From Lama glama (taxonomy: Eukaryota), in the NCBI GenBank assembly GCA_028534125.1, contig CM052816.1, positions 15,936,001 to 16,000,000 of the forward strand: DNA of 64,000 nucleotides. The letters are read 5' to 3'. Position numbers and translations under genes: made by a program. The notes below the pieces were generated by a model. It had not been told where the DNA came from, did no database searches, and was given only the letters and a program-made list of their open reading frames with translations. Below, piece after piece: positions 1 through 57,520 of this stretch. Position 1 is the first letter of the stretch. Every line of letters starts with the position of its first letter.

Positions 1-830
1 AGCGCGCGCGCACACACCTCCCACCGCTTTGCCCAAATTATTTTCGATCCCGGGAGACTCCGGATGCCAGACGCGCTCCGCAGCGGCGGCGGCGGCCGCG
101 CCTGATTCATTGCGCCAAAGCTGCAGATGCGACCTCCCGCCTGCGCCCTGTGCCCCGGCCCGCGCCGGGCTGCGTGCGCGCCTGGAGAGATGGGGGTGGG
201 GTGCGGCAATTTGTAGGAGCTCCCCCCTCAAGAGGCGGGCCCCGGCCCCCCGGGGCCAGGTCCCCGGTCCCCAGCTCCCCGGGCTGCGCTAATTAGCTTC
301 CTCGGGGGGCGCCACGCGGCGTGAGGGGCGGCAATTTCCCGGCTGGGCTGCGGGGGAAGCGCTCCCACCGCCTGGGAAGGTGAAATGGGAAACTCGATTC
401 AAAGAGAGCTTTCCTCCCCCCTCCCGCCAAGCGCCGTAGAAAACGGGTTTGAAATTCCTCCTCTCTCTCTCTCTTTTTTTTTTTTATTTATAGTGCACCG
501 TCTCCATGGAAACCGCGGAGGAGGTCACGGTAGCTGGGCCCCCGCGCGTCACCCCGCGCCTCGCCGGCTGCAGGCGCCCGGATTGCGGCCTCCCAGGCGC
601 CGCGGCCCGCGTGGACTCTACTCCGAGTTCCCCGCCCCCGCTCCACTCCGCCCGCGGCTCAGGCCATATGATTCTGCTGGGTCCCAACCGGGAATGGCGC
701 ACCTGGGCACCAGTGCGCTGGGCTATGCCTCTGTCCCCCGGCTCTGGCACGCGGGAATGCGCCAAGATACACGTGCCCAGCTCCAAGACAAGAACATGTG
801 CCGCGAGACGCCGCCAAGGGGCTCATAGCA
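1..830. promoter_or_regulatory. Orphan CpG island (truncated by window start)
   Basis: Dense CG dinucleotides and GCGGCG repeats; no recognisable protein ORF. Confidence 0.8.
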
Positions 831-899
831 CTAGTGAATGCCCTGGGGGATCGACCTATATAGGCGCACAACTCCAAAGCTCTTGCTAAAACGAGACCA

Positions 900-1075
900 C
901 CCATAGTTAAGAACGCTGGAGTCAACCGAGTCCCGCCTGGATAACTTACTTAGCTATGTGACTTTGAGCCAGTCGCAACCTCTTTGCGTCTCAGCTTGCT
1001 CATCAGCAAAATGGAATTGTGTGGCTGGAGACAAAGTACATTAAACACTTAACACTATGTTCGGCACGTGGTTCT
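900..1075 (+). mobile_element. MIR SINE fragment
   Basis: ACTTAGCTATGTGACTTTGAGC...CTCAGCTTGCTCATCAGCAAAATGG resembles the MIR core. Confidence 0.7.
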
Positions 1076-1229
1076 GGAAAATGGTAGCTGTGGCTGGTGT
1101 TATTTTTTTCAGGCTGGGAAAGCCGAGGCCACAAAACCTTTGCTCAAGGGCGCGGTCAGTCAGAAAACTGGGAGTTACACCTTGGGAGCTCCCCAGCACC
1201 TCAGCTTAGACTCACAGGCCAGAGGTGAG

Positions 1230-2200
1230 GGGACGCGTGCCGGCTGTACAGGGCCTGAGCCTGCCTGAGGCACAACGGGCGGGACCTCCTGAGCTAGCCA
1301 CATCCGCACCCGGAACCCTGGAAACGGGACTCCCCGCGGTGCGCCCCCCCCCCAGCCCCATTAGCAACGGGCCTGCCTGCCCTCCCTCCCAGGGCTGAGG
1401 CCGCACCTGCCCCACCGGATGGCCGCCCCAGGGCCAGATCGTGCCCCCTACCGCGCACACTTCCTCCCGGACCCCCACGGCCCTGTGGAGCGCGCAGGGG
1501 GAGGGGACCGGGCCACCCCCGCCCCGCCAGCTTCCCACAGCCCGAGCAGCCCGGAGCCGGGGAGGCAGGAAGTCTCAGAGCCGGGGCGTGGAGGCGGGGT
1601 AGGGGCAGGAAGTTGGGGGTGACTCTCCCAGAGACCCCAGACAGGGCCCCGGCGTGGGAGCGGGGTGGGCGGGCGCTTAGGGATTAAGGGCGCCCCCCCA
1701 CCCCCGCCTCTGTGGCCTCAGGCCACGTGACCCTGCCCGGAGCGCCCTGCTGGGTGAGGGCGAAGGCCGCTACCTCTGGCGACCCCCCAACAGTGCACAC
1801 AAGGAGGGAGGGGCAGCCTTTGTCTACTTTGCCTCAGACGCAGCCCCCCCACACCCCCTCCCCCCGGGCCCCGTCGGGCCCTGCACAGCCCGGGTTTTCC
1901 ATCCGGCCCGGCTCGGCTCGGCAGCTGTCAGGGGACCGAGCTGACCTTCGCGAGCAGGGAGTTTCAATTAGCCGCAGATCAGATAAGCGGGCGGGCCCGT
2001 CTCTCCGGGCACCGCGGGGGCGCAGCCCCGCCCCCGCCACGCCGCGCCAAACGCGCTCCAGATGGGAACAAAGATGAGGACGCAGCTCCACCTGCCTCCC
2101 CGGGGAGGGGGGAACAGGAGGCCCCGCCGGGAGAAGCTTCCCATCGGAGAAAAGGGTTGCTCACCCTCCCCTGCCCATCTAGGATCTCATTCCGGAGCAA
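1230..2200. promoter_or_regulatory. Second CpG-rich block with GC boxes and an E-box (CACGTGAC 1724-1731)
   Basis: Elevated CpG, several GGGCGG motifs. Confidence 0.6.
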
Positions 2201-2444
2201 GGGGTCTAGCCAAGACAGTCTTTGCTACTCCTCTTGCCTCTGGCGCAGCAGAGAGGTACCTGTCACGCTGACCTCATCCCTAGGCGGGCATCGTGCCCTC
2301 CCTCCCCCAGAGAGATGCTTTTGCCATCTCTGATCTCATCCAGAGCGCTCCCTGTGAGGCTGAGAGAAGCAAGCAAGAGCCCAACAGAGAAAGGAAACTG
2401 AGGTAGAGAAGGGCTGGACTTCCTGGTCCAGGTCACACCAACCA

Positions 2445-3050
2445 CATTTTTTCAGATGTTTGAGTGCCTACTAAGTGCCAGGTGCTGTTCAGACTATGAG
2501 AACATCAGCCCCATAGAGCTTACATTCTGATTCAGGGAGAGAGATCATAATCAAATAAACAAATAGTTTAACAAGATCATTTCAGAATTTCTGAAAAGTC
2601 ATGAAGATATTAAAATAGGTCATGTGAAGGCTGACTTCAGGGAGGCTACCATGTTAGCTACGGTAATCAGGGAGGGCCTCTCTGAGGGGGTGATATCTGA
2701 ACTGAGACCTGAAAGACCAGGAGGAACTTGCCAAGCAAAGGAGAGGATGTGCAACATGCCACAGTGGACATGCCACCGTGGGCGCAAAGGGAAGCAGATA
2801 GAACAGGGCTTTGCAGACCAAGTGAGTGATTGGGTTTTTGAAAAGTGCAAAGGGAGCCTTTGGTGGGTTCTAAACTGGGAGTGACATGGTCTGACTTAAA
2901 TTTTTAAAAATCCCTCTGGCTACTGTATAGATTAGAGGAAAGCAAAGGTGCAGGAGGGAGATGGGGAGGAGGGGACTGGAGGGAAAAAGGGGGTGGAAGA
3001 GGGCTTACAGGATTAGTGATATATTTTGGCAGATGAAGTGGATGTGGGGG
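2445..3050 (-). mobile_element. L2 LINE fragment
   Basis: TTGAGTGCCTACTAAGTGCCAGG, GAGCTTACATTCT, CAGGGAGGGCCTCTCTGAGG, GAGTGACATGGTCTGACTT: typical antisense L2 3' region. Confidence 0.75.
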
Positions 3051-3144
3051 CGAGGTGGAGCAACAGAAACTTGGTGAGAGAGGAAGGACTTAAACGTAGG
3101 TTGGCCTTTGGGAGCATGGAGGGTCTGCTTAGAGGTGAAGAGTA

Positions 3145-3340
3145 AAGTTATGGAGTAAGAATGCCAGGGTTCAAATACTAGAACAGATATTTTCTAGCTC
3201 AGTGACCTTGGGCAAGCACCTCTATCAATTTCTTCAAGTATTTTAAAAAGAAAAGGAGATTGTCACTATAAGCTTTGAAAAGGATAATATCTGAAAGGTA
3301 TTTACCAGAGCCTGGTAAAGAGTAGGTGCTCAATAAATTT
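3145..3340 (+). mobile_element. MIR SINE
   Basis: GGGTTCAAATAC...GTGACCTTGGGCAAG...GCCTGG...GTAGGTGCTCAATAAAT. Confidence 0.75.
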
Positions 3341-3809
3341 CGGCTATTATTTTGGATGTTGCGGCTACTCCCCCTCTCCCCCTATATCTGCCTTTTTGTA
3401 CCAGAACCATCCCCTGGCCTTCCCACCCCACCTCTGGCCTTGTTTTCATTTGCTGAGGACAGAAGCTCCACCTCTCATCTCCTCCCACCCAATCTTTCTT
3501 TGGAAAGGCAGTTTGGGGGGGATCATTGCAAAGGGACTCACCCAATCCTTGTTCACTAAACTGACTGCGGGGCTCCCTCCTCGTCCAGGACCCCAGAGGA
3601 GTCCCTGCCTGCCAGAGGAGTTGAGAGCATTCAACTACCATTCATTCAGTCAGTTGAGTGGCTCTCCAGGCAAGTCTGTGCTGAGTACGGAGAAAAGCAA
3701 ACCCAGGCCCTCCTCTCAGGCAGCTGCTTGGATGACTCTTTGGTTAGGGCATTTTGTGCTCTAGGGCAGGAGAACATGGAGGGGCTCCTTTGGAGAAGCA
3801 GGAACTACA

Positions 3810-4030
3810 ATCGCTCCCATTTATGGAGCCTCTGCCCAGCGCCAGTCACCATGCCCTGGTACATGTCATTGAGTCCTTACAACCACTCAATGAGGTCTAT
3901 TATTATTACTAGTCTTAATTTATGAGCAAATAAACAGAAACTTCCAAAAATGAAATGCCTTGCCCAAAATCACACAGCAATTAAGAGGTGGAGCTGGGAA
4001 TCTAATCCAGGTCCTGCTGAGGCCAAAACA
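3810..4030 (-). mobile_element. MIR SINE
   Basis: CATTTATGGAGC...CCTTACAACC...TTGCCCAAAATCACACAGC...GAGCTGGGA. Confidence 0.7.
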
Positions 4031-4650
4031 GGAGAATTTAAACATTCTATTATCTGGTCTCATATTCTAATAAATGCAAGGATGTCTCTGAAATTCCTGT
4101 GGTGATGGATCTTGCCCTTACTTCCCTCAACTCCCCTATATGCCTAAGGCTTCATCTGAATCCTCAGGAGCCCAGCTTGGTGCCATGTATACAGTAGGTA
4201 CTCAAGTACTGCTTGAATGGAGCTTCCTCTTGACAAAGTAGTGTTGATGCCTGCCTGAACCTTGACATTTCCCCTTGGGTCCTGGGGCCCTTATATCCCA
4301 TTTCAGAGCCTGTCAGTGCTGTTGACTAGAGAGAGAGAAGTTCTAGTTTGCATAATATTTGCATCTGCTTTGCATGCTGCTCACATAACATCAAAATGCA
4401 CAAAGGCCTAGGCCTGGTACCCCATTCCCCCTCTTGGCCTCTCCCCTCCACAACCTGCTGACCCCAAACAGGGGGTGAGGGTTTTTGGGAGTACCCATTT
4501 AGGGTCCAACTAAGCTTGTCTACTTCCAACATTGTGGGGACAGAGATGGGAAGATTCTTGTCTACCCTCATCCCTCACTCTCCTTCATCCCTTCCTGGAG
4601 GAATAGTAGTAGGTCAGAAGCCAGTGGCAAAAGCCACTGTTTGTGCAGAA

Positions 4651-4651
<1 letters not shown>

Positions 4652-4682
<31 letters not shown>
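4652..4682. repeat. (AC)n microsatellite
   Basis: About 15 AC units. Confidence 0.95.
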
Positions 4683-4683
<1 letters not shown>

Positions 4684-5918
4684 CAGTGCAACAGGAAACA
4701 TCTGGGATCTGGGTGCCTGCCTGCCACCCCATGACAGAGGTGGAGAAGGGAAAGGAGGCAGTTCTGCAGTGCTCCTGCTGCTGACAGTGGCTGGGCTGCC
4801 CCCTAGTAGGATCCTCATATCCCTGCCTCTCCTCACACAGATCCAGTCTGCCTCCCCCACAGCCAACTTCACACCTACAGACCCTTCTAATATGGCTCCT
4901 TGGGCTGAGGAAGGGGAGGGTAGGAACAGGAAGAGAGAGAGATGCCAGTAATGGGATGGTAGCAAGGACTGGAAAGAAGGAAACTGTGGCTCTATGATCC
5001 TGGGGAAAGAGGGGGAGAGTCTGTGCCGAGCCTGGCCCTACCCTGGACTTTTAACCAGGTCAGGACCTTTAAGAGACATAATGTGGGGATAGAGGAGGAG
5101 GGAGCTGCTGTGATTGGCTGGTGAGGCATGACTCACAGGAGTGAACAGAGGCCAGTAACTTGTCCCAGTTGGACCCAGACATCACTGTAATGAGTGTCTT
5201 GGGGTCCGAAGGGCCATGAGGTGTCAGCAGTTGAGGACTGTGATTTGCAGAGGTTTTTTGTAGCCCACACATGCCCCTTCCCCTACTCCAGGTTGAGATT
5301 ACAGGTTTGGAGGCATCCTGAAGGTGAACAGAAACTAGAGACCCAGTAATTCAGAATGGTGGTCTCACAAGGGGTCTCTGGATGGATGGAAGGCAGCAGG
5401 ATACTGACTGACTGGCTTTGTGCCAGCCATGTGATGGGTGCTGACGGTGACAGGACACTGAGAACCTGGCAGAGAGCCTCAGACCTACAGACCACCACTG
5501 CACAGACACTGCCCTGGGAGCCCTTCCTGGAGGAAGCAGCACAGGGGCTTGGCTTCAAAGGATGGGGAGAGAAAATGACAAGACAAGACATGTGACTAAA
5601 GGCATGGTGGGCAGGGACCACTTTGGGGTGTCAGGTACACCAGAAGGAGAGAAGAGGGAGGAGGCAGGCAAAGGCTGTATTGTGTCCAGTCTAGAATGCC
5701 TTGTTTTCTCGCTGGGGAGCCAGCACCTTAACAGGCAGGAGAGGACATGAAAGGTGGACACAGACTGGAGGAAGAGGCTGCAACCCTGGCTCACAGGACA
5801 CAACTTACCCCTGCCTTGGGGCATGGAAAGTATCAGGGCTGTGTGAAGTTCCCCAGTGCACCATCAACTCTGTGCACCCACTGCACTGCACTGCACAGCA
5901 TGTTGGGTTCTGCCTCCA

Positions 5919-6278
5919 TGATAGACTGATGTTTATGTTCCTCCAAAATTCACTTTGAATTCCTAATGCCCAGTATGATGGTATAAGGAGGTGGGGGCTT
6001 TGGGAGGTGACTAGGTCATGAGGATGGAGCCTTCCTCAATGGGCTTAGTGCCCTTATGAAAGGGACCCCAGAGAGATCCCCTGCCTCTTCCACCATGTGA
6101 CAACGTAGCGAGAATACAGTGCCTATGAACTAGGAAGCATTTCTTCACTGGACACCGAATCTGCCAGTGCCTTGATCTCGGACTCCCAGTCTCCTAGAAC
6201 TGTGAGAAACAGATGTTTGTCATTTAAGCCACCCAGTCTGTGGTATTTTTGTTATAGCAGCCCAAATGGACTAAGACC
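5919..6278 (+). mobile_element. MLT1A-type ERVL-MaLR solo LTR
   Basis: CTTTGGGAGGTGACTAGGTCATGAGG, TTAGTGCCCTTAT, GCCTTGATCTCGGACTCCCAG, AGAACTGTGAGAAA, TTTAAGCCACCCAGTCTGTGGTATTTTTGTTATAGCAGCC...GACTAAGAC end; ~360 bp. Confidence 0.9.
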
Positions 6279-6559
6279 CCTACCCAAGAGGGGCTCCCTA
6301 GAGGCCTGAGCTCCCAGAGGAAACTTCCACCTGGTGTGGCCTCTCCTGGTCCTTGGCCTCTTCTTGTGTGTGCCCTCGTCTCAGCTGAGACCTTCACAGT
6401 CATCCCCACAGCCCTGGGTGTAACTCCAATTACCATAACTTATAGTCAGAGAATCTCCTTGAGCCTGAGTTTCCTCATCTCAAATGGAAATTTTCTAAAT
6501 TTTCTAGAATTCTTATAAGAATTTAAGTTGGATGAAGTCCTTAACAGAATGCCTGAATT

Positions 6560-7090
6560 TCATTTATTTAATCATTCTCTATTTATTGAGTGCCAGACAT
6601 TGTTTTAGGTACTGGGGTTTCAGTAGTAAATCACAGAGACAAGGTCTCCTGTTCTCAGAGGTTTCCATCCTGGAGAGGGAGAATGAATATAAACCACAAA
6701 TATGTAAATGAGAGAATTTTACATTATGACCAATGCTGTGAAAGTATAAATAGGATAATGTAATAGGGTGACATTACAGCACAACTGGAGGTCAGAGTGG
6801 GTGGTTTTTGATAAGGTGGTCAGGGACCTTGTCTCCAAGGTGTCATTTGAGCTGAGACCTGAATAATGAGGAATCTATTATGCTAAAAGGCAGAGGAAGG
6901 GGGTTCCAGGGAGCAGAAACAGCAAGTGCAAAGGCCCTGAGGCAGGACCCTGGGGAGGCTGGTATGGCTAGAGCAAGGGGAGCAGGTAGGGTAGAGGCTT
7001 GGGTACTGTAGGTCCTCAAGGACTTTGGAAGGAGCCTAGGTTGAATTCTAAGGGCCTTAGAAAATCACTGGAGGTTTTCAGCAGGCGTGT
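6560..7090 (-). mobile_element. L2 LINE fragment
   Basis: ATTTATTGAGTGCCAG..., GGTGGTCAGGGA, TCATTTGAGCTGAGACCTGAA, CAGCAAGTGCAAAGGCCCTGAGGCAGG. Confidence 0.8.
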
Positions 7091-8274
7091 ACTGGGAATT
7101 GATTTACATAGTAATTGCTCAATAAAGGCTTGTTGTTGTCGTAATGAATAATAATAATAATATAAAGCCCAGAGAGGAATAGCAATATGCCCAAGGTCAC
7201 AGAGTCCCCACCACACAGCCCCTTCCTCCTTTGACTGGCCTCCCCTCCCCTAAGGAGCCCTGTGGATCTGCCCCAAGCCTGGCGGGAAGGAGGTGAGGGC
7301 AGCCTCCCTTCCCTCATTCCCGCTCCTTCCCTCCGGCCATTTCCCGTGCTCCTGGCGCCTGCGCCCCAATTAGCCAGCGAGGCTGACGGCCTTGGCTCCA
7401 AATGACAGACACCTCCTGTCACCCCCTGACGGGCGAGGAGATTAACTCTGAGCGGCACCGGTTCCAAGGGACGACAACAGGGAGGGGAGAGGAAGGGGGA
7501 GGGGATGACCAAGCTTCCCCCCACCAAAAGCCCCCAGTGCCTTGGAAGGAAGGGGGGCTGGAGGGGGGACCCAGCTCTCCGAGAAGAGCCCTAGCAGGCT
7601 GGGGAGGACCGCCCCACTCTGCTGATTGGCTGCTCCAGTGGGGGCCAGTGCCCCAGCCTCCACCCTCTGCTGCTCTGAGGGCAGGGACCTTGCGATGCCT
7701 GTGGGTGCTTCACACCTGAACCGTCAGTTCTGGGCACAGAGTGGATGCCCAGTAAGCACTTGTGGCCCGACTGTGCTAAGTACATTTTTTTCATGCAGAA
7801 CTCATGAAACAACACCCCCATTTTAAAGAACAGAAGACTACTAAGGCTCAGAGGTGGAGGGACTAGTTCAAAGATGACACAGATGGCCTAGAATTTGAAC
7901 TGAGGCTGCCTGGTGCCAAAGCAAGTGCCTAACCACTGTACTAGATCACTCTTCTCCTTAGGCAGAGACTCAGCTCATGCCACGTAGGAATTTATAATCA
8001 CTTTGGGGCAATGAGACACAAACCTTGGAAAGGGAATTAACATAGCTGTTCTGGTCATAGATGCTGAGTGCCAGGCAGGGGTCAGAAGTTCCAAGTAACA
8101 CACCCCTAGAGAGTGGAGCCAGGAGAGATGGTACAGAATGGAATTGTGTTTCCTAGAGAAGAGTAAGCGGGATCTCTAACAAAGGTATAACTTGTGAGAA
8201 GAAGACAAGAGGAAGGCATTCTAGGCAGAGAATTTCACAAAGTCTTGAAGGCAGAGAACTGACTGGGCAAGGCA

Positions 8275-8700
8275 TGCATTAATTGGTCAGGACTTCAAGT
8301 TGCAAGTGACAGAAACCCAACACACACTGGTTTAAGCAAAATTAGAACCAATCTGTTCATTCTGAGGCTCGAATAGAAAAGTGTTTGGCTTCAAGTGCAA
8401 GGATCAGCTGCCCTTTGCTGGGTTCATTCACAGATAGTTCTCCCCAAGTGACAGCAGCCTCTGATTCCCACACTACCATATTAACAACCTCTACCCCATA
8501 ATTCCAACCAAAGCTCTGGGATTCAACCTGATTGACTAAGCCCAGGTCGCGTGTCCATCTCTGAACTAATCACTGTGGTAACGTAGGAGTTTGCTGATTG
8601 GCCAGGTCCCCCAGCACTAGTGGTAGGTGAAGTCACTCTAAAGCCCTAAGGGTGGTGGGGGAAGACAAAGGTGGTCCCCAGAAGGGAGGCACCTGGGGCC
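8275..8700 (-). mobile_element. Old MLT1 (J/K/L-like) LTR
   Basis: GTTGCAAGTGACAGAAACCCAA...TGGTTTAAGCAAA and CTGATTG...CAGGTCGCGTGTCCATCTCTGAACTAATCACTGTGG. Confidence 0.7.
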
Positions 8701-9264
8701 AGGCAATACCAGGACTCTTCAGTTCCAGGGCTAGAGTCTAAGCTCCGAATGACTCCTTTATGGGGAGCCTGAGGACCTCCACTCTCCCCAATTCCAAGAG
8801 TTCTCACCTGTGCAGATGACATCCATCAGTCCAGCTCTGGCCAGGTGAGAAGGGGGTCCAGGAAGCCTCCTGATCCAGGACAGGAGGGCCTTGAGAGTTT
8901 CCTCTTACTGAGATGCTTTGGTAAGCTATGGGCTTACCTGATATCTCCACTTATCCTGTACCCTGTAAGTACCCCCTAGAGTTTGTTTCACTATCAGGGT
9001 CTTTAATTGCCTTTTACAAAGTCACCAGATCTGACTGCCAAGAAGAGCAGTTTTGCAACAGGAAAAACTATGGCCAGGTGCCAGGAAGGACTTCTACAGG
9101 TAGAGTTTTCCATCCCATAGTATGGGATGGGCATGGCAGTGTTAGCAAGAGAACAGGCAACAGCTGGGCCAGCCCGCAGTTTAGAGTGAAAAGTACAGCA
9201 GCTCATCCTAGAGCTAATGACTGGAGGTAATGTGCTCCTTTCACCAGGAGGAGTAGGGAAGGCA

Positions 9265-9480
9265 CTGTGCTTTGGCAGTCATGCTTGGGGTTTGGAGCGT
9301 GAACTTGGAAGTCATACTGACAGAGATTTGAATTCTGGGTCAGCTGAAAGATCTTGGGCTTGCGCTGTCCAGTCTTGGTTTTCTTATCTGTATAATGGGG
9401 ATCATACAAGGCCTGACCTCAAGGGATAGCTAAGTGCAAATGAGATATTGCATCCAGGTGCTGAAACAGAGATTCTTCCA
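9265..9480 (+). mobile_element. MIR SINE
   Basis: TTGGAAGTCA...TTTCTTATCTGTATAATGGGGATCATA. Confidence 0.6.
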
Positions 9481-10288
9481 TTAAGGGGCAGCTGTTATTA
9501 CTAATATTCTTCTAGCTCTTGACAAGACAGGCCCTTAGCATAGAGCTACCGGCAACTCTTTCTGGACCTCAGTTTCTCCATTTGTACTTCCAGCCCTCGC
9601 ACTCTTAGGGTGGGTGACTTAGATGATCTCACTGGAGAGAGGACCCCTCCCACATCAGTCAATCCGTGTGTGTCGGGGTGGGGGGGTTGGGGAGGGAAGG
9701 CGACAGGCAATGCCCAACCAACGATTTCACCAGGCTGGGCAGGCAGCGCCAGGCAGGCGGGAGCTGGTCAGGTTTTTAATTGAACGCGATGCAAATGAAA
9801 TGTAAATACCATGCAAATAAGCTCTTGCCAGGAGGCGCTGGGCTGGGAGCAGAGGGAGCAGGGAGGGGACTGCTGAGCAGGGGCCCTCCCCTGTCCCCCT
9901 TTCTCTCTCTCCTGTGGCTGCCCATGCCCCTGCCCAACCCCTGGTGCCGCCCACCCAGCCAGGCCATTACATTCTCGGAACAGCGGGCACTGCATCCCCC
10001 GAGAGCCACCCCCTTCCAGATCCACATCTCTAACCCTGAGGCTCCTGGTGGTGGTGACAGGATGCTCAATGAGGAGCCATAGAACCTGTGGTTGGGACTA
10101 CGCTAACCCAAACACAGTCACACAGAAAGACCCATGGAGACATAGAGGGGACACACAGATATAGACATGCAGGAACCTACATTTCCCTCTCAAGTTCCCT
10201 GCAACACTGAGACCCACAAGGGCAGCCAATAACACACAAATATATACAATTGCACATTGCATCGCAAATACACACAGTGGCAGAAATA

Positions 10289-10389
10289 CACCCAGTCATA
10301 GGGGCACATGCCTACACACACACACACACATACACATTTACAGAGCCTGTCCTGCCATGAGGATGGCACCCAGTCATAGGGGCACATGC

Positions 10390-10459
<70 letters not shown>

Positions 10460-10498
10460 GCGCGCGCCCAGAGAGTCTGCCCTGCCATGAGGATGGCA
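10289..10498. repeat. Tandem duplication whose units each contain a (CA)n tract; second unit has (CA)~32(CG)5
   Basis: CACCCAGTCATAGGGGCACATGCCTACAC at 10289 and 10367; CCTGCCATGAGGATGGCA closes both units. Confidence 0.9.
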
Positions 10499-12489
10499 AA
10501 CTGAAGTTCCTGTGCTGGCCTGAGGTCAGGGCTGGGGGATGGGGGGGACAGGCACCCTGTGTGGTCAGAGCCTGGTGGTCTGAGTGAGGCCAGATGGGCT
10601 GTAGGGGGTGAGGGGATCCTTCCAGGTGGCCCACTCCCCTATCCAAAGACACATCACCATACCCCAGGGCTCATAGCCACTAGACAACCCCAGGCGTTGG
10701 TCCATCCTCAAGTCCTGGGGTACTGAACCCCATCCTGGGATTTGGAATCCCCCTGCGGTTATATAGCCTCCCTCCCCTTGAGGCAGCCAGCTGTTTGGGG
10801 GAGGTTGGCCCAGGTGACAGGGCCTGATCTGCTACCTAAGGAATCCATCCCTACCTTGCCAAGGGGTAGGGGATGAAGAACAGGGGAGTGGAGGAAAGGC
10901 TGAGCCTTCTGGACAAACCTCCATTCCATCCAGGATCCACATCTGGGGGTGGTTCCAGCCCCCCGCCCCTGAAGTGACTCACGACCCACATTTAACTCTC
11001 ATTAGCGCCTCTGAGCCCAGCTGGGAGGGACAACCGCCAGCTTCCCCCAGCAGACAAGGAGCTCTGGGTGGGCCGCCCTCGCAGCCTCAGTTTCCCCCCA
11101 GGGGCCTGGCCCAACGACAGGGGCTGCGTGGGAGAGCTGTGGCTCATAGTCCCCTTCATCTGAGCTGGGGCTGTCCTCCGCCCCATGGAATGAGGGACTG
11201 GGTGTGGCCTCTTCCAGGAACCCCAACCCCAATGCCCCTGCCATATGCACCACAGCTTCAGATAATCCCCCACCCCAACCAGGGCCCAAGGGTCAGGAAG
11301 GAGGGGAGGGGGAAGATGGAGTTAGATCTGAGGGGACTGAAGTTGCCGATGATACTGTGGCCAATCAGGCCCAGGCGCCCCCCCAAAAAAAGTGCTCCCC
11401 CTCAGCCAGGGCCTTACACAGAGCGGGGGTGGATGAATGGGGCCAGAGAAACGGGGACGTGGCCAAGGACCCATGGCCATTCTGACCTCCTTCCTTCCCC
11501 TGCTTCACAGCCTCGACCTTGCTCTTATTTTAACTAATTCAGCCTCTACTCCTTCAAGGTGCACAGGATGCCCTGGGCGCAGGTCTCTGGGAAGCCATGC
11601 CAAAGACCCCCACCCTACCCCAGGAGGGGCCAGTTCGGCCTGCCTCGCCCACACTCCCTCCCCTCTTCTCCTCTCTGTGGGAAGGAGGCAGCTGGGGCGG
11701 GGGTGGCCTCGGGAGCGTCTTGCCCGTGTGATCGTGCCGAGCCGGGAATTCGGGGCCATGTGGGAAAGACATTAGTGCCGGCCGCCCTGCCAGCTAGGAA
11801 TGCGCCCCCCGCTCTGCAGCCGCCGCCTGCCTGGCCCAGAAACGGTGACTCACCCGCTCCGTGTTCGTGTTCCCACCCCCTCATCGTGCACCCTCCACAG
11901 CCCACCACAGGCCTGGCTGCGGGCTTTCCAGGCTCCCTGCCTTGCTCCCGCTGGTCCTGCTACCTGCCTTGCCTATCCTCCAGTCTCTACCAATCTCATC
12001 ATGCTGAAAGGGATCACACCTCCTGGGGAGACCTCAGACCCCCTCCCCAGGCCTATCTATTCTCTGGAGAATTGCTGTGATTCAACACTTCTTTGGGGCT
12101 TAGCCCCCCAGGATGTCTCCCTCATTCCAGAAGTACTCACCTCTGGGCCCTCACACCCTTCCCAGAGGCTGGAGCACAGGGCAGGTGCAGAAAAAAGAAA
12201 GACATCAATGTTAAATTTGGGAAGCAGAGTATTGAGTGGGGAGTGCTGTTTCTCCAGCTTCCCCTCTGAGACCTTGGAATAGTAAACAATGCTACCTCCC
12301 TCAGAATATGTGACCTTGGATCCCTTGTCTGAGCCTTCCTTTCCTCACCTAATACAACAGGGATAACAGTGCCCACCCTGTGTGCAGAGGCGGCCTAAGC
12401 AGAAGCTTTTGTCTATAGTATCCTCAGCTCAGGGGCTGCGGCTGAGAGGGCCTCAATCACAATGACACAGTGATGGTGGTGATGACATT

Positions 12490-12640
12490 ACTAGTAATCA
12501 CAGATATTTAATGAACACCTACTATGTGCCAGGCCCTCAGCTGGGTATCTTCTAGATATTATCTCACATCACCCCTGCCTTAGTCTTGTGAGGGTAGGGC
12601 CTGTTACTCTTCTTTTACAAATGAGGAAACCTTGACATGT
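12490..12640 (-). mobile_element. MIR SINE
   Basis: ATTTAATGAACACCTACTATGTGCCAGGC...TTTTACAAATGAGGAAAC. Confidence 0.75.
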
Positions 12641-13169
12641 GGTGAGGGGAAGGCACTGACTCAGGGACCCACCTCCAGGGCTCTGGTCCCAGAACCCCCA
12701 GAGCTCTCCAGAGCCCATGCAGGAGCATCCTCTAGGTCCGACTCTTTCAAAGACCAAACTGGACTCCAGTAGGTAATCCCCTGCAGCTCCCACCCCCATT
12801 GGAACCCCACAACCAGCCTCCCACCTCACCCAAGTCCACCTCTCATAACGTTTAATAAGAAGTAATAGCACCAAGCAGCGGGCACCTGCCTCATTTTTAA
12901 TTATCTCATTTACATTTAATTTTCCCCACCAACGTGATGCACTTTATTAATGTTTTACCTAAGAGCATCTATTTATAGGCTAAAAATATGTTCATAAAAC
13001 TAATGGGCAACACTTCTCTTTTGGAGCCCCCTAGTTCAGAGGGGGGACCCCAGATGCGGCCTTAGGCCCTATGACCCAGCAACCAACATAGTTCTTGACT
13101 CTGGAATAATGAATGAGCAGATGTCCCAGAACCCTTCAGAGCATGACCCTTCCCTTCCAGCCCCCCAAA

Positions 13170-13370
13170 AGAATGATTATTGAGTGCTTACTCTGCTAGA
13201 CACTTTATGGGAATATCTCATTTAATCCCTGTATCAGACCTTACAGACAGGTACTATTAAACACCTGTTCTACAGATGGACAAACCCAGAAAGATGAAGT
13301 ATCCTGCCCAAGGTCACACAGGAAAAGCTGGTATTGCAAACTTAGGGTGTATAACTTAAAGCCTGCTCTC
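13170..13370 (-). mobile_element. MIR SINE
   Basis: TTATTGAGTGCTTACT...ATCTCATTTAATCC...ACAGATGGA...GCCCAAGGTCACACAG. Confidence 0.8.
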
Positions 13371-14558
13371 TGCACTGCAGGATTGGGTGGCCCACACAGA
13401 AAATCCATGCCCCGGTCGTACAGACACCAGCTCCAACATTTTGAGATCTTGGGTCTATGGGAAAGTGCACCCTGTGAGTCTCAGGATGTCAGTGGAATTG
13501 GGTGACAAGGTGAATGGGAGGAGTGGGACTCAATGACTCAGGTCTCACAGCAGTGGACTCCCAGGGGTCCTGGAGATCTGGGTATAGTTTTCCAGGCCTC
13601 TCAGTGCCCAATGGCTGTGACTTCCACAGAGGGTCCTGGAAATACTAGGGCACCCATCTTGCTTTTCCCCGTTGGTCCCGAGATGAAAGTGGGCCTCCTC
13701 TAAAGCACAGTGGATGAGCACAACTTCTGGTTTCCAGGAGGGAAGAGAAAATATGAAACCCAAAATGAAGCCTGAGCCTAGCGCTGGTGGAAATACATAG
13801 CTCCAGGGCAAAAGGGCAGTACAGATACTCTCCTTGACCTCAGCTCCTTGTGGGCAGCATGGACCCTCAATTTGGCTTTAGCCAGGACTGCAGACAGGCA
13901 GTATGGACAGTGAGTCCATGCCTTGGCCAGGCTTTAGGCAAAAGGACAGTGTGGACACTCACCTGAACTCCAGCCACACTCTGGGTGGGCGGTGTGGACT
14001 CCTCCTTAACCCCAGTCTTACTCACAGAACCAGGAACTCCTTTGAGATTTGAGGGAGCTACCCGCTGCCCCGCTGTAGGGGCACAGACCTACTTTTCTTT
14101 TCTTTTTTTTTTTTTTCAGACCTACTTTTTAATAAATGCCTGGGGGTCCCAGAAGCTCCACTTGTTACTGCAGGACAAGAGAGGGTCACCTTGGCACCCA
14201 AACGTCTGATTAGCACCCTTGAGCCACACTTACCTTCCAGCCTCAGTTTGCTTATCCAGAAAAGGGAGATTGTGACCTCAGAGAGCTGCCAGGACTGCCA
14301 TGGTGATTAAATGAGATGGGGCAGCCAGGGCTTGACCATCTACTCCACTCCTGAGTGTCTTCTCTTCTTTATAGCTCCCTCACTATATAAAAGAGAAAGC
14401 AAGACCCAGAGAAGCCAAAGGTATACCTCAAGATCACACAGCATATTGGGATCGGGGTGGAAGTGAACCAGGTTTAGGTCTCATGTCGGGGTGGTACTTG
14501 AGGAAACTCCATGGACTACAGTGGGTTAAGCTGCACCCTGGCACCTGGTCCAAGCTGG

Positions 14559-14597
14559 GTGTGTGCGTGCGTGCGTGCGTGTGTGTGTGTGTGTGTG
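14559..14597. repeat. (TGCG)n/(TG)n compound microsatellite
   Basis: GTGTGTGCGTGCGTGCGTGCGTGTGTG... Confidence 0.9.
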
Positions 14598-17500
14598 TTG
14601 CTGGTGAGGGGGTGCAGTGGACGGGGTGTCAGGGGAGCTGCTGCCGCCGCCTCTCTGGTATTTTTAGCCTCTGAGAATGAGCTGAGCTCAGGGCTCTGAG
14701 CAACCATCAGCAGTGAGGGAAAAAGGAAGGTCCCCGCCACCCCTCCCTACCACCGCCAGCCTGGAGCCGGGTTTGGATAGGGGGGCCAGCCTGGGAAAGG
14801 GCATGGACCCCAGGGACTGGAAGTAGTCAGGTCCTGAAACCCTGTAACCCAGCCCACACCCATCCTGGTCATCTTTCCCATGCCCCCTTTCTATGGGGTG
14901 TATCAGCACCCAGTCAAGCTGGCAGGGACAGGTACCTCCATCTCACCCCTGCTACCCTCGGCTTCCCCTGCTAGAAGCTCCGGGCCAGCTCTTGCCTGTG
15001 CGGCCAGGTCAGAGCTGCTTGGTTCCCATGACAACAGATGACAGCAGCAGAAGCTGCTGGCCACAGGGTCAGGGGTGAGGGGGGGTGTGGGTGTCAGAGC
15101 AGGAGAAGGGAGTGGGCCCAGCACAGAAGTGGGGGAGGGGGCTGGAGTGAAGGACCCTGAAACTACAGCCCCTTCTGGAGGTCTGAACTCTTAGGAGACT
15201 AGAACTTTGGCTGATTGATCCTGGTAGGTACTCCACTGCACTAATTGGGAAAGCTAGACTGGAAGGGCTGGCTGTGTCTTTGGTCATGTGATCACAAAGC
15301 CAGCTACGGGGTTACAGCTTGGATGGAAATCCTAGCCCTTGCCTCTCTCAGCCCAGGACTCTGATCCTCTGCTAGGATCTTGGGGGATAAGAGGTGGAGC
15401 CCAGATGTCTAGGATGTGAACAGATCCTGAAGCCCTTCAACCAGCCTGGCCTATAACTTGGAGTCCCCATCCTGTAATGAGTAGTCAAGGCCTCAGTACT
15501 GACAGGTCATTTCTATTCAAGTCTAGCCCCCCACTTACTAATACAGGATATGTTGTTTCCTTGGAAGGGGACATGGCAGGGAACATGATCATGTCCTCCT
15601 GCTGACTCCCCAGCTCAGCCCCAGGGGGCCAGGATGGGGTTGGGAATTTACCCTACATACCCAGATTAACTGAAGTCTTCACTCCAGACTTAAGTCCCTC
15701 CAAAGGTTGCCCAGGTTCCAGAACTGTCATTGGCTCCCACTGTCCCCAAGACAAAATACATTCACTCATCCTGGAGCTTGAGGATGACCCCATAGTCCCC
15801 TGGGCTCCCTCCAGTATGGTCTCCTCACTGTCCCAGTCTCCAAGTCTCCTAGGTAAGCAGGCTCAACTCTACTCACACCTCCTCCAAGAAGCCTTCTTGG
15901 CTCCTTCTATCCACGTAGATCTCTTGTTCACCAAGGAGTACAAGGCTTGAGAGTTGACAAGGACCTTTCACAGAGGACTTCTCATTCCACCCTCATAGTA
16001 TCTCTGGGAAGTAAAGCCCAGAGAGGGAAGCTTCCTGTAGAAGGTCATACAGCCTGTGAGCCTGGTATCCAGCTGCAAGCCCCCACTTCTCTTGGGGCCC
16101 CCTCTTGGCAATCACCAGCCTGTGGCCCTGCAGTTGGGATCCTCAAGCTCAGACCCAACAGTTTCTTTCTCCAATTCATTATACACAGAGAGCTACCACA
16201 TGTCCTCTGTCTCCAATGCATCCATTTACTCAACATTATTAAGCACCTAGCATGTGCCAGGTAGAAAATCCTCTCCCCTTTGGAGCTTATTTTCTAGCTG
16301 GGAAGACCAGCAAGTAAACAGGAGAGTTTACGTTATGATCACAGCAAGGCTGTGATGGGGCACCCAGGACAGTGGGTCCATGGAAGAGAGTTCTCCAGCC
16401 AGACTTAGAGTCAAGGCAGATTCCAACCACAGCTCAGCCTCCATTAGGTCCTCCCTGCCTGGAGGACTTTACTCCCATGTCTAACCTCAATCCCACTAGC
16501 TGCAACCCCTAAAAGACTTTGTAAGTGGGTGACTGGCTAAGAAAGACCAATACCCAGGCCCACGACCCCAGTGCTTTACCAACCAGCACCCCTTTTGAGC
16601 CCCCCACCCCCAGCTCTGTTTGGGGAACTGGCAGGCCAGCGGAGCCATGGGAGCCAGCAGGTGGTAGGTAGGCCGGCAAGGGTCAGGGCCTCCCCTTCCT
16701 GGGACTGCTGAGCCAAACAGGGAGCAGGGGAGGGAAAGAGGCCATGGGATTGCTGCTTGGTCTTCAGGGTCTGAGGACCACCAGGAAGGGAAGAGAAAAT
16801 GAGAAAAGAACTCAGTCTTGGCTTCCAAAATCCTCCCACCTATTGGAGCCATGAGGGCTGCAGGAGGCAGGGCAGGCTCCTGACACAGGACCCAGCACCC
16901 CCGCTGGGGGTGGGGGTCGGAGCACTGGGCACCCTCGTGATGAGGCCGGCTGCAGGGCGATTAATCTTGTGAGGCCTGTGCGTCAGCCCCCCACTCCTCA
17001 GCCTCCCATGGTCAACCCCACCCGCGCTGCCCTGGGAGTTAATCTCTGCTCGGGGGACTTCTCAGCCGCTGTCACGGCTGCATTAATTCTGAGGCAGAGG
17101 GAGGCAGGCAGGAGGGACACAGTTGTGGCGGGGGTTGGGGGGAGGGGGGAATAGACTCCTTGGAAAGGTTTCATGGTCAGCAGCTGGTGAGGAGGGGTCC
17201 CAAAGGATGGGGCCTGGGTCCCCTTCAAGGCCCAGCCCTCAATGAGGGGTTGGGGGTGTCTAGATTATCCCCTTCAGACCATCATAGCCCCTGCACCCCC
17301 GGCCTCTAGCCCTCAGCCACCAGCTGAGCCCCAAATGCAGTTTGCAGTTTTGACAGCAGATGTCTCTCCTATTATGATTTATCAAAATGCTTAAGGTAAA
17401 TAATACACACATATTTATAGTAAAGGAGGGGGGCGGTAAAAGGTGGGAGGAACTGAATGGGGTCGGGGGGTTTGAGGCCAAGGACTCAGAACATCCTTGC

Positions 17501-18124
17501 CTCTGTCCCCAGCCCTCCCCACTCAGAGGAGGCTTGACCCGGCCTGGCCCTAGGGAAAGTGGGCTGGGGTGACATCAGACCTGCCCAGCTGCCTGCCTGA
17601 GCCTGGCCCCCAGAGGTCGGTCAGGGAGTGGGTGGACCTGCCTTGCTGGGCCCCCGCCAGGCTTGGGAGGCAGCCACCTGGGGGAAGCGGCTGAGCCAGC
17701 CTCACACCTCGGCCTCGTTTCCATGGCTTCACTGCGTCCTGGCTCCCGAGGGCTCTGTCGCCTTATCAACGGCGGCGCAGCGGGCACTGCCCTTGCCCTC
17801 ACCCTCGCAGCCACTCCCCCCGGAACCCAGCAGCTGCCTGTGGATCCCACTGCGGCAGAGCCAAAACTCAGCTACAGGCGGTGTCCCTTCCTGGGCAGGC
17901 TCAGAGCTGTGTGAGGGGCTGGGAGGGTGGTGGGAAGATGCCAGGAAGGTGGAGGGATGGAGGTCTTTGTACCTCCAGGCTGCACCCACTTTGCGCCCCC
18001 CAGATACCCACACCCTGTCATTCCAGGGAAGTGGGCAGTGATCCTGGGCTATGCTCTCATCCCTCACTCTCACTCCAGTGTGCTCTTTGTTTTCAAACCT
18101 TTTCTGGGCTTAAGAACGTTTAGT

Positions 18125-18260
18125 TAAAGAACTTTATTGGGTTTTCTGACTTGAAAAGCAATATACGTTTTCTGCAAAAACAAAAAGCAAGGAAATAAAA
18201 TGTCAGAAAGGACAGAAGAGTTTGAGTAAGTAATGCTTGACCCTAATCCCACATCTGGGC
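18125..18260 (-). mobile_element. Old L1 (L1ME-like) 3' end fragment
   Basis: AAAAGCAATATACG...AAAATGTCAGAAAGG...CCCTAATCCCAC, resembling antisense L1ME 3' UTR. Confidence 0.5.
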
Positions 18261-18369
18261 AGGACCACAGGCAGCATGTGGGATAGGGACTGGGTGTGTA
18301 GGGGGGTCTCTTCCAGCCAAAGCCTGAAGCATAACCAGGTGTTTAAAGTCAGCTTCTAAAAACAGAGAA

Positions 18370-18540
18370 ACTGGACTGTGTGACCTTGTATGTCTCCCTA
18401 CCTCTACCTCTTTGAGCCTCAGCTTCCTGATCTATAAAAGGGGATAACAAATCAATGCCATCCTCACAGGGTTGTAAGGATTAAGAAAGCTGGAAAGTGC
18501 AATGGATGGCCCAATGCCTGGCACACGGGCAACAAGCTCT
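18370..18540 (+). mobile_element. MIR SINE
   Basis: CTGTGTGACCTTG...GAGCCTCAGCTTCC...CTCACAGGGTTGTAAGGATTAA...TGCCTGGCAC. Confidence 0.8.

Positions 18541-21251: not shown

Positions 21252-21254
<3 letters not shown>

Positions 21255-21298
<44 letters not shown>
21255..21298. repeat. (CT)n(CA)n compound microsatellite
   Basis: CTCTCTCTCT followed by about 14 CA units. Confidence 0.9.
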
Positions 21299-21301
<3 letters not shown>

Positions 21302-23704: not shown

Positions 23705-24694
23705 GACACAAACATGCATTCGTTTTATTCACAAAACAGCCTGGTTTCCTAAAACAATACAAACAGCATGTTCATCAGCAGGAAGCTGGCCATGGGCAAG
23801 GGGGCCCCTGGGCACCCACCACCACCGGCATGGGGCCACGCAAAGAAGCCCTTTCTTCTGTTGCCAGCAGCAAGGCCAGAAAAAAGGGACTTATTTTCTC
23901 TAAGGAAAGTAGCCAGGTTCAGAAATATTGAGACATGGGCTCCCCAGATCTCGATGGATAAACGACAGAACTTTCGTTTTCACAAAATCATCACTGTTGG
24001 GGTGGGGGATCCCATTCTGGGGACCGTGGGTGCGGCATGGCTGGCCTGCCCCTCCACCCCACCCCGGGGAGGGTGAGTGGGCTGCTCCCTCCCGCTCTGC
24101 GAGCTCCTCGCGGCAGCTCCACACGCGTGGATGGATACACAGGGGCTTCGATACGGCGCCATCAACATTCTCTTTATAAACGTGAGTGGATTCTCCAGGC
24201 AAACTATGCACTATTTCATGGTCGGAAAGAATTAAAGGAAGTTTAAATGAGGGTGGAGTTAAACTGTGCTAAATTACAGTAGTGCTTATTAGTAACTAGA
24301 TTTCAAAAGGTTACAGAAAATTTACATTCTCTACACAAAAACTGCATCTCCTGCACAGACAACATCAACATCGACACAGGAAGGAAACTGATTGTCCATT
24401 CTCTGCCCAGGAAGTCTCGGTACTTTATAGATTCGTCTTTACCTCTTTTTTTTGTTGTTGTTCTTCCGAAAAAGCAGTTAAATTTTTTTTCTTTTCTTTT
24501 TCTTTTTATACTGGGGACGTGGAGATGTTAAAACGACAACAAAAAATATATATATAAAAACAGGAATGAAATCTGTGAGAATATTTTTGGTTCTAAAGAC
24601 GGGTGCATCCGTTTGTCTTCGCCCGAATCCCTTGCCGGAGACCACACGAGCAGTGACATTGCACGGAGAGGGCAGCTTTGGGTTCCCGCCGCCG
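23705..24694 (-). other. CXXC5: CXXC5 3' UTR (~1 kb, with AU/U-rich blocks)
   Basis: Follows the TGA; AT-rich tracts at 24160-24600 contrast with GC-rich flanks; ends after AATAAA. Confidence 0.85.
23724..23729 (-). terminator. CXXC5: Polyadenylation signal AATAAA
   Basis: Plus-strand TTTATT; minus strand reads GAATAAAACGAATGCATGTTTGTGTC, i.e. signal followed by GU-rich sequence. Confidence 0.85.
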
Positions 24695-24739
24695 TCACTG
24701 AAACCACCGGAAGGCGGCTCCCGTCGGAAGCATCACCTT
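24695..24739 (-). CDS. CXXC5: CXXC5 terminal coding exon, KVMLPTGAAFRWFQ*
   Basis: Minus strand reads TTGTCTCCCGCCCCCGCCAG|AAG GTG ATG CTT CCG ACG GGA GCC GCC TTC CGG TGG TTT CAG TGA, the known CXXC5 C-terminus; spliced total 319 aa. Confidence 0.97.
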   Translation of the reverse strand, partial: KVMLPTGAAFRWFQ

Positions 24740-54699: not shown

Positions 54700-57520
54700 C
54701 ATGGACAGCCACCCCCGCCCCCGCGGGCCAGGGCAGCTGAGGTGGCGCCGGGCGTTCAAATAGCGCTCCAAACAAGTCCGCAGCGACCGCGCACGCAGCC
54801 CCCGCCAGGCGGCCCCAGCGGAAAACTTAAAAGGGACTCTGTTTGCCGGCCGCCCTGGGGCGGCTCCGGCAGTGGCGAGGGCCGAACGATCGCACACGCC
54901 CCCTCCTCAGCGCTTCCTGCGCAAACGCGGGGGTGGGGGTGGGAGGAGGTGGCCCTGCGCCCACCACAAAATCAAGGACTCCGAACAGCGCCCTCGGCGC
55001 AGGGAAAGGCGGAGGTCAAGAGGCTGTCTAGCCAGAGCCCCCCCTCTTCAACCCCTTCAATCCGAAGACGCGACTCAGACCACCCAAGGTCCAGGGGGCA
55101 GAGCAGGGCGCAGAGCAGGGCGCGGCTGCCAACCCTTTAGACTCCCATCGCAGGACACAAGAGGGAACGAGTCTTTCCAAATGAGTCCCTACAGAACCCC
55201 TCAAATATGCTGGTGCCTCCTTGCAGCCCATGGCACCAGCCCAACTCCGCGCGCCCCTTCTAATTCCTAACGGGGGAAGAAAAGCGATCTTGCTCCCTCA
55301 TTGGGCGCTTCAGCTCTTCTGACAGGTCTTGGAGGCGGCCCCCCGTTTAAAAACTGGGGTCACTCACTTTCTGTTGATCCTACAAATAAACAAAGCCAGG
55401 CGCACCCCGCGCTCCCCGCCGGAAAGCAGCCCATTCCGGACGAGGACAACTTCCCCCAGCAAGAAAATTAACACATTCTTCTCGCGGCGGTTCAGCCCCT
55501 CGCTCTGGGGAAGTAAAGGGGAGGGGGGCTCGGGGCCGAACTTCACGGGTAAATTTGGGGCCAGAGCAGCGAGGCAGGCGTCTGGAACACCCGCCTCCCA
55601 CAGCTCCGCAGCTAGAGGAACACCCCCATTCTCCCTCCCTGGCTTTGCATGCTGCTTGGCCACGCGGGGCTCGGGAGACAGCCTGAAAGACTCCCCAAGG
55701 CTGGGGCGGAAGGCAGAGACAGAGGCGGCGGGGAGGATTGATGGGGGGGGGAGTGATACTTGACGGGAAAAAAAAGGTCAAACTTGATCAGCCCGCCAGG
55801 CACCCAGAGGGCAGCGGGAGTGAGGAGCCGGAGGGTAAATGTAGAAGTGGCCATCGACCTCGCTAAGTGAAGACGGAGGCTCAGCCACGCGTGCTCACGG
55901 GCCTTACGAGCAATTATCATCGCCCCCAAAACACAGGGCTGCGAATGGGGTCTGCTGGGGGGAGTGCGCGCCGGAGATCTCCAATCAGCCGCCCCCGCAG
56001 GCGGAGCGCCCGCCCAACGCCGAGAGGTGAGGACCCGGGGTCCAGCCGCCCCTGCACCCTCAAGCTCGAGTACTTGGGGAGGGGACGGTACCCCGCAGGA
56101 GAGCCCCGGCCCCAATCAACGGCGCCCAAGCCTCCGTTCCCGACCCTAAAACCCCTCTTTTTGTCTGAACTCAGTGATCTGCGACCGAGCTGACTGCGGC
56201 TTGGGGAGGCTTGAGTATAGCAGAGGCCACTGAGCGATCACCGGAGCTAGGGCTCCCAGCCTCCGGGGCTCCGGGACTCTGGTTACGGGCGCCCCCCGCC
56301 CCACCCAAACACGGACCCCTCCTTTCCCGTCCCTGGCTCTCCGCACCTGAACTTCGGGGGAGCCCGCGCCGCCAAACTTTCCGCCGACTTGCAGCGAACT
56401 CCGGCCCCGGCCGCGCACCGGGCCCCGGGGGAGGAGAGGGAGGTAGGCGGGGAAGGGGAGGGGGCCGGCCTCCGGGGGGGTCGGGGGAGGGCCGTGGCCC
56501 GACACCTACCGGCTCTCTGAGTCGTCCGAGCCGCCACTGCCGCCGCCGCCGCGAGGCCGAGGGGGAGGGGCGGGGCGGGGAGCTGCGCTCCGCTCTGGGC
56601 ACCGCCGCCGCGGTGCGCTCCGCTCCAGCCGAGCTGCCCGCCGTGCCCGGGTCCGGAGCCGGAGTCACGCCGCCGCGGTTGGCCGGAGGCGGGGAGGAGG
56701 GGGGAGCCTGCAGCACCTGCCCCTCCTCCCCCTCCCCGCGGCCCAAATTAAAAAACAACAAAAAGCAACTAATCACCCCCGAGCGAAGCGCGGCGCGGCT
56801 GGCGGAGGGCGCAGCGTGAGGCGCCCGCACTCAGCAGGCGGCGCGCATGGCTGGGCGCGGGCTGGGCAGGGCTGGGACGCGGGGCCCGGCTTCGGAGAAC
56901 AAGGTTAGGCAGCTCTTCTCGCTCAGCTCGGGCGCCTGGTCTCGCCACCGCCGCCGCCGTCTCTGCTGCCGCCAGTGCCGCCGCCTCTACATCCCCGCTC
57001 AGGCTCCGCCGCCTCTGCCGCCGCCGCCGCCGCGCGCCCGCCCGGGCAGGAGCTCTGAACGCTGCCCGGGGGCTGCCGGCAAAACCCGGACCGGACTCAT
57101 CGCTTCCTCCTCCCGCCCCCCCCCCTCCACAACCACCTCGGCTCCCCTCCCTCCTTCCTCCGCCTCCCTCCAACGCAGCTCTGGCCACTTGGACGCCGCA
57201 GGCTCTGAGGCCGGAGCCGCAGCCACTGCGCCTCGAGCTCCTCGCACTCCGACGAGGTCGGCCCAGGCTCAGCTCCTCAGCGCTCCCCGTCTTCACCTCT
57301 ATTCCCGCAACTTTACAAAAAACAAAACAAAACAAAACAAAAAAAAACACCTCTCGTGTTTTGTGAGGAGTGCATAGGCTTGGAGACCCACCTTACGGGG
57401 AAATCCGCCATCCCTCTGGCCCCTCTCTTCAGCCGGCCGCGAAGCTACGAGAACCAGTAGGGAGGGTTTGGCCGCGCCCCTCAGCTCAGGTGCGCGTAGG
57501 GCTGGGAACTCGTAGCCGAG
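54700..57520. promoter_or_regulatory. CXXC5: CpG island promoter of CXXC5
   Basis: Very high GC and CpG density, GC boxes (GGGGCGGGG 56567-56580), CCAAT boxes at 55981 and 56112, A-rich tracts at 56746-56765 and 57317-57348. Confidence 0.9.
56510..57020 (-). other. CXXC5: Probable non-coding exon 1 of CXXC5
   Basis: GGC-repeat-rich leader inside the CpG island ending at donor GAGAGCCG|GTAGGT (56510/56509); 5' end inferred. Confidence 0.65.

Follow-up and report, generated by a model that had tools for sequence, protein, structure and literature searches.

Two triple octamer arrays with an 11-bp period downstream of CXXC5 in Lama glama, predicted platforms for a POU-domain factor

The window analysed here, a stretch of 64,000 nucleotides of Lama glama DNA, contains CXXC5 on the minus strand (Table 1). 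The CXXC domain encoded in its main coding exon matches PDB 5W9S chain C (E 7.7e-29). PSD2 lies outside the window. In both human, where the distance from the CXXC5 end is 112 kb, and mouse, it comes after CXXC5, and the same gene order is assumed for the llama. Two short arrays of three POU octamers each, designated copy 1 and copy 2, are located beyond the 3' end of CXXC5, at 13.9 and 19.3 kb, respectively, from the poly(A) signal at 23724. The initial annotation, which was made from the sequence alone and covered copy 1, had placed that element ~14 kb downstream of CXXC5, and this position was borne out. The plausible start sites of CXXC5 lie 46.8-47.5 kb from copy 1 and 52.3-52.9 kb from copy 2, distances that carry the uncertainty of a 100-base N gap at 30033-30132 in the CXXC5 intron.

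Positions 1-2300 of the window form a CpG island, 21-24 kb past the CXXC5 3' end and at ~2 kb from copy 2; if this is a promoter or enhancer that has escaped annotation, it could be another target. No young SINEs were noticed by eye across the 64 kb, and a tRNA scan of the window returned nothing. The distal sequence element of snRNA genes has an octamer some 200-250 bp upstream of the gene; no match to an Rfam family was found in 1-9500 or 9620-24000, and this identity was rejected for the arrays.

Table 1. Features of the CXXC5 locus, in coordinates of the window.
Feature	Position	Strand	Remarks
Copy 2 triple octamer	4346..4375	-	three head-to-tail units, 11-bp period, ATGCAAAG/ATGCAAAT/ATGCAAAC
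Degenerate fourth unit ATGTGAGC, candidate	4379..4386	-	in the 11-bp register of copy 2
SOX-type ACAAAG	4400..4405	+	~25 bp 5' of copy 2 as the array is read
TAATTG homeodomain-type site	9777..9782	+	6 bp 5' of the first octamer of copy 1
Copy 1 triple octamer	9789..9818	+	three head-to-tail units, 11-bp period, ATGCAAAT/ATGTAAAT/ATGCAAAT
CXXC5 last exon	23705..24739	-	stop codon 24697-24695; poly(A) signal 23729-23724; 3' end ~23705 estimated
CXXC5 main coding exon, from start codon	26269..27183	-	open reading frame; CXXC domain; splice donor read from sequence
CXXC5 first-exon region	56506..57300	-	in a CpG island; splice donor ~56510; start site approximate

The units of copy 1 start at 9789 (ATGCAAAT), 9800 (ATGTAAAT) and 9811 (ATGCAAAT) and are separated by the spacers GAA and then ACC, all exactly as had been annotated. 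The array is preceded by TTTTAATTG at 9774-9782, and the TAATTG at 9777-9782 is outside the 11-bp register. The surrounding island (9773-9822) has 30% GC versus 62% and 69% in the flanking DNA, which agrees with the AT-rich island in GC-rich DNA described at the outset. The CpG observed/expected ratio around copy 1 is no higher than the 88th percentile. Copy 2 was detected in a search of the window that allowed the triple pattern as many as 3 mismatches; this search gave 2 matches in the window versus 0 in 100 shuffles. Copy 2 is 5.4 kb from copy 1 on the opposite strand and, read on the minus strand (4375-4346), has the spacers CAG and then ATT; there is no CpG within 400 bp at copy 2. The fourth unit listed for copy 2 may be due to chance, as may the neighbouring ACAAAG, which is a short motif.

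The window includes 39 sites within one mismatch of the octamer. Same-strand pairs of these at up to 40 bp comprise four at 11 bp and two at 22 bp, all contributed by the two triples, and no 10-bp pair occurs among the 39 sites. In an order-2 Markov null (500-bp blocks, 300 runs, a mean of 29 single sites per run), pairs appeared at a rate of about 0.01-0.02 per spacing and no triple arose in the 300 runs over 23 spacings (8 to 30). As this null ignores tandem duplication, any 8-mer repeated three times with a period of 8-24 was also counted in the window. Ten such generic triples were found, spanning eight periods; three have a period of 11, and two of those are the octamer arrays. The occurrence of two octamer triples among 10 generic triples has a p value of about 2e-4 and, once copy 1 has fixed the motif and the period, ~0.004 second arrays are expected by a rough sum. 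Thus, the doubly occurring triple array, though sampled as two arrays at a single locus, is real, and its origin by chance is very unlikely. Local alignment of the flanks of copy 1 with those of copy 2 gave scores of 20 and 22, with 23 as the 95th percentile for random pairs; the flanks therefore align no better than random pairs, and paralogy of the two copies was ruled out.

The arrays might also be neutral, either decayed micro-duplications or pieces of old interspersed repeats that contain octamers by chance, and old MIR/L2-like fragments seem, by eye, to be common nearby. This explanation is nevertheless quite improbable given the low p value for two octamer triples among the generic ones, the distribution of changes between units (8 in spacers versus 3 in cores) and the presence of a mouse POU2F3 peak at a matching distance (see below), and the unrelated flanks of the two copies argue against a single repeat family. 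By columns, variation affects 2 of the 16 core columns and all 6 spacer columns (Fisher p 0.0004), a value that is inflated because the units were chosen by their cores.

All four intervals between neighbouring units have a length of 11 bp, and the spacer letters are fully diverged. The initial annotation had attributed the spacing to placement of the octamers on the same face of the helix. An 11-bp step is indeed near one turn, but this account is too weak, as at 10.5 bp per turn steps of 10 bp (-17 degrees) and 11 bp (+17 degrees) are equally near one turn and yet 11 bp is found in all four intervals. The uniform spacing suggests either that contacts between proteins impose a fixed register or that the units descend from 11-bp duplications. 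A-tract bending was dismissed by reasoning, the A runs being just 3 bases long.

If the second of these holds, the arrays would be functional homotypic POU clusters in which the 11-bp period is the trace of an 8+3 slippage duplication of each site; duplicates would be kept since more sites bind more factor, and exact spacing would be unneeded. Consistent with this, both arrays scored as weak period-11 tandem repeats, and in the available part of PMC13216069 the HDMA model tagged a tested POU-POU pair 'no synergy'. A variable-spacer scan for octamer repeats in a metagenome set, which yielded at least 119 loci among the matches listed, is also in its favour: as judged by the first matches of the 119 loci listed, the spacing is 12/12 in 62, 10/10 in 12 and 11/11 in 10, and several of the ten loci with 11/11-spaced ATGCAAA are plain satellites. 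The set looks mostly microbial, however, and so provides no null for mammals. Independent duplications need not share a period, and the 10 generic triples in the window do not; moreover, interval length has stayed unchanged in the llama arrays while the spacers diverged completely. We therefore consider a functional cluster of this origin possible but rather unlikely.

Long 11-bp satellites with ATGCAAAT are present on three of the metagenome contigs (L039, L049 and L050), with repeated spacers in their first matches, and such repeats thus arise in unrelated DNA too. No orthologue of the array neighbourhoods was seen among the 119 metagenome loci listed, and the best 40 rows (two loci) of a BLAST search with both neighbourhoods held matches to the repeat itself alone. 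When sequencing runs were compared with positions 9550-10050, 20 of the 24 runs listed (9 studies) contained 0.33 of 49 sampled words, and none contained half or more; this is a lead and does not count as evidence of conservation or open chromatin.

The six units are all within one mismatch of ATGCAAAT, three of them being exact, and all fit ATGYAAA, their cores keeping ATG(C/T)AAA. The consensus for forkhead factors is RYAAAYA, which is found in just three of the six units, and an array of forkhead sites was accordingly rejected. The consensus sequences of PAR-bZIP, C/EBP and TEAD factors fit poorly unit by unit, worse than that of forkhead. Reading of the arrays by forkhead factors, through GYAAATA overlapping the octamer, could be argued from the three exact matches and from the occurrence of ATGTAAATA and ATGCAAACA in FOX composites of HDMA (available part of PMC13216069). 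It is very improbable, as the required A at position 9 is absent from three of the six units whereas the ATG of the POU site is kept in all. The POU reader named in the initial annotation is supported by the contrast between six of six units for ATGYAAA and three of six for forkhead, together with the mouse POU2F3 peak at about the matching distance.

According to the available parts of PMC12755459 and PMC10812921, the coactivators OCA-T1/T2 and OCA-B require A at position 5 of the octamer. Adenine is present at this position in every unit, and all six are OCA-competent octamers in this sense. OCA-B complexes are further favoured by a base other than T at position 8 and disfavoured by T at position 4 (PMC10812921, available part). 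Two units of copy 2 lack T at position 8, and the middle unit of copy 1 has T at position 4, which is unfavourable for OCA-B. The arrays are predicted to be binding platforms for a POU-domain factor, most likely one of class II (POU2F3 with OCA-T1/T2, in tuft-type cells); OCT1 or OCT2 with OCA-B could be alternative readers of both arrays.

Composite POU elements that bind more than one POU protein have been described. PORE (ATTTGAAATGCAAAT, from the osteopontin enhancer) binds an OCA-B-permissive POU dimer (PMC10812921, available part). As in PORE, each ATGC that follows another unit in the arrays has a homeodomain half-site 3 bp on its 5' side, and copy 1 shares the spacer GAA and agrees with PORE at 12 of 15 bases. 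However, PORE consists of two inverted sites that overlap by one base and accommodate a closed dimer, whereas the arrays are direct repeats, three in a row, and identity was rejected with 3 of 15 mismatches in copy 1 and 5 of 15 in copy 2. MORE, ATG[C/A]AT[A/T]0-2AT[T/G]CAT, is likewise a multi-POU binding element and is refractory to OCA-B (same source), but it is palindromic with ATGCAT-type half-sites, and its best match has 3 of 12 mismatches at both arrays.

The HDMA homocomposite POU_POU#2, ATTTGCATAAATTAGCAT, reported for fetal excitatory neurons and radial glia (PMC13216069 Table S6, available part), resembles the arrays as an octamer-type pair arranged head to tail about one turn apart. 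It differs in having a 10-bp period, two units, one of them ATGCTAAT, and POU3F2 as the best-matched factor, as opposed to 11 bp, three units and A at position 5 throughout; with a period of 11 in all four intervals and a best match that differs at 7-8 of 18 positions, the arrays are not instances of it. The tested POU-POU pair mentioned above peaked at 10 bp. Rigid composites in general prefer centres about 7 and 11 bp apart (PMC13216069, available part). A hard-syntax composite in the same source, HD:DLX/LHX_POU (TAATTAGNATGCAAAT, Table S7), has a homeodomain site a short, constant distance 5' of an octamer and is matched by units 2-3 of copy 1 with 2 mismatches, but there the octamer is paired, in brain, with a homeodomain factor of its own, which makes it a heterotypic pair and not a repeating POU-POU unit. 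As judged by sequence, then, the layout is not that of PORE, MORE or the 10-bp brain POU-POU motif.

POU2F3/OCA-T tuft enhancers (available parts of PMC13051935, PMC9534498 and PMC12755459) share with the arrays the A5 octamers and a distal intergenic position, and in mouse one POU2F3 peak lies in the Cxxc5-Psd2 interval. They are described as single-octamer complexes, with no fixed-spacing trimer mentioned, nor is a tandem or dimer motif mentioned in the accessible portions of POU2F3 studies, PMC13051935 and PMC12755459 included. An 11-bp octamer repeat was likewise absent from the available parts of the NCAP-SELEX (10.64898/2026.09.23.753737), ChromBPNet (10.1101/2024.12.25.630221), Oct4 cluster (10.1101/2025.10.20.683403) and CAP-SELEX (PMC12119339) reports and of 10.64898/2026.08.30.748132. 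No description of an 11-bp head-to-tail trimer was found in the openly licensed literature searched, a scope of text as distinct from figure logos and motif databases. Apparently, therefore, the arrays are a POU platform of a known kind in a layout that is undescribed.

In mouse duodenal tuft cells, 2828 POU2F3 ChIP peaks have been reported, of which peak_2650 is the single peak listed both for Cxxc5 (+45,308) and for Psd2 (-89,704); the two genes also figure in the list of genes shared with a human tuft-like cancer line (PMC13051935, available part). Neither gene is in the ChIP-plus-tuft-up or ChIP-plus-tuft-down list for mouse duodenum in that part of the source. Peak_2650 and copy 1 were matched by distance alone, +45,308 from the Cxxc5 start comparing with +46.8 to 47.5 kb in the llama; the scale needed is 0.95-0.97 for copy 1 and 0.86-0.87 for copy 2. 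For one preset site and a tolerance of 2.5 kb, a peak this close is expected by chance with a probability of 0.5-1.6%; for either of two sites and a tolerance of 5 kb, the figure is 2-6%. A single mouse peak is listed versus two arrays in the llama window. Mouse Cxxc5 presumably spans ~32 kb, which would put peak_2650 ~13.4 kb past the end of the gene, like copy 1.

In NCI-H526 cells, a human tuft-like line, guides against C11orf53 (OCA-T1) lowered PSD2 17-fold relative to non-targeting guides (log2FC -4.13) and CXXC5 1.2-fold (log2FC -0.29) (PMC9534498 Table S2, available part). The initial annotation had described the element relative to CXXC5; its position was right, but these expression data favour PSD2 as the POU2F3/OCA-T1-dependent gene. 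Human PSD2 could, however, be driven by other POU2F3 sites. The supplements of PMC12755459 contained no rows for CXXC5, PSD2 or NRG2. In the available part of PMC10849552 (fig1_data), the scores of PSD2 and CXXC5 alike range from -1.2 to -1.4 in two SCLC-P lines, CORL311 and H211, but not in H1048; as the genes are neighbours, this co-movement could be a copy-number effect of cutting.

A further possibility is that the phased grammar is real but serves another POU reader, namely POU3F1-4 in neural, glial or kidney cells or OCT2/OCA-B in B cells, with CXXC5 as its target. The octamer is bound by all these factors, the HDMA motif POU#1 is found in brain and B cells (PMC13216069, available part), and many regions of accessible chromatin have been linked to CXXC5 in radial glia and neurons as well as in cornea, muscle and thymic epithelium. 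A POU2F3 peak, furthermore, means that binding is possible and is silent on which factor keeps the site. On the other hand, the tandem motif of POU3 type in fetal brain repeats at 10 bp and includes ATGCTAAT in the portion of HDMA available, as against A at position 5 in all six units here, and the sole perturbation data found, from the accessible part of their source, move PSD2 strongly and CXXC5 slightly. Another reader acting on CXXC5 is therefore improbable.

The arrays may well constitute an enhancer on which a class II POU factor (POU2F3/OCA-T) sits head to tail in a fixed register of 11 bp, with PSD2 as the likelier target. In such a scheme, peak_2650 would be the mouse orthologue of one array, best of copy 1. 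Three POU domains would bind head to tail, with a gap of 3 bp between the homeodomain of one and, on its 3' side, the POU-specific domain of its neighbour, as the 8+3 repeat sets the homeodomain half-site AAAT 3 bp before the next ATGC. The contact in the PORE dimer is made by the homeodomain of one protein with the POU-specific domain of the other. The 3-bp gap in the arrays is PORE-like, but the half-site is direct, so the contact would not close and could repeat into a trimer or longer. The invariant adenine at position 5 would let every unit recruit one OCA coactivator, and the element would act as a distal enhancer, for which PSD2 (~90 kb away in mouse) would be a likelier target than CXXC5, the nearest gene. 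Counting against this scheme are the one mouse peak listed for two arrays, the absence of both genes from the mouse duodenal tuft lists, the lack of CpG at copy 2 and the modest CpG ratio around copy 1, the T at position 4 in one unit, the silence of the POU2F3 papers on tandem motifs and the 10-bp register preferred in fetal brain.

A broader proposal, put forward tentatively and to be regarded as possible but rather unlikely, is that MORE and PORE are not the only ways in which class II POU factors oligomerize with OCA coactivators, and that there is a third. In this mode, the proteins would line up head to tail at steps of exactly 11 bp in a chain that is open-ended, held by the homeodomain-POU-specific contact and tolerating low-affinity octamers (G or C at position 8), and its trimers would mark enhancers of tuft cells and tuft-like cancers genome-wide. 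If so, the arrays upstream of PSD2 would be one case of a class of trimer-marked enhancers. The geometry of POU oligomers decides their coactivators, MORE excluding OCA-B and PORE allowing it. To these, a head-to-tail trimer with a fixed 11-bp spacing would add an arrangement absent from the papers searched. It could explain how POU2F3/OCA-T chooses strong enhancers among many single octamers, and would present a new protein-protein surface in a complex needed by tuft-like small-cell lung cancer.

Several further features of the window were observed. A CATCTG E-box at 4362-4367 overlaps the first spacer and the second octamer of copy 2, and the same string ATTTGCATCTG also occurs in a myogenic composite of HDMA (PMC13216069, available part). 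At 10290-10500, two CA microsatellites of 23 and 66 bp are accompanied by repeats of an ~80-bp unit, which reflect either a genuine duplication or an error of assembly. The CXXC5 intron, otherwise GC-rich, has clusters of homeodomain-type words (TAAT/ATTA), seen by eye at 36455-36630, 37520-37630 and 40270-40330; these are likely to be conserved enhancers.
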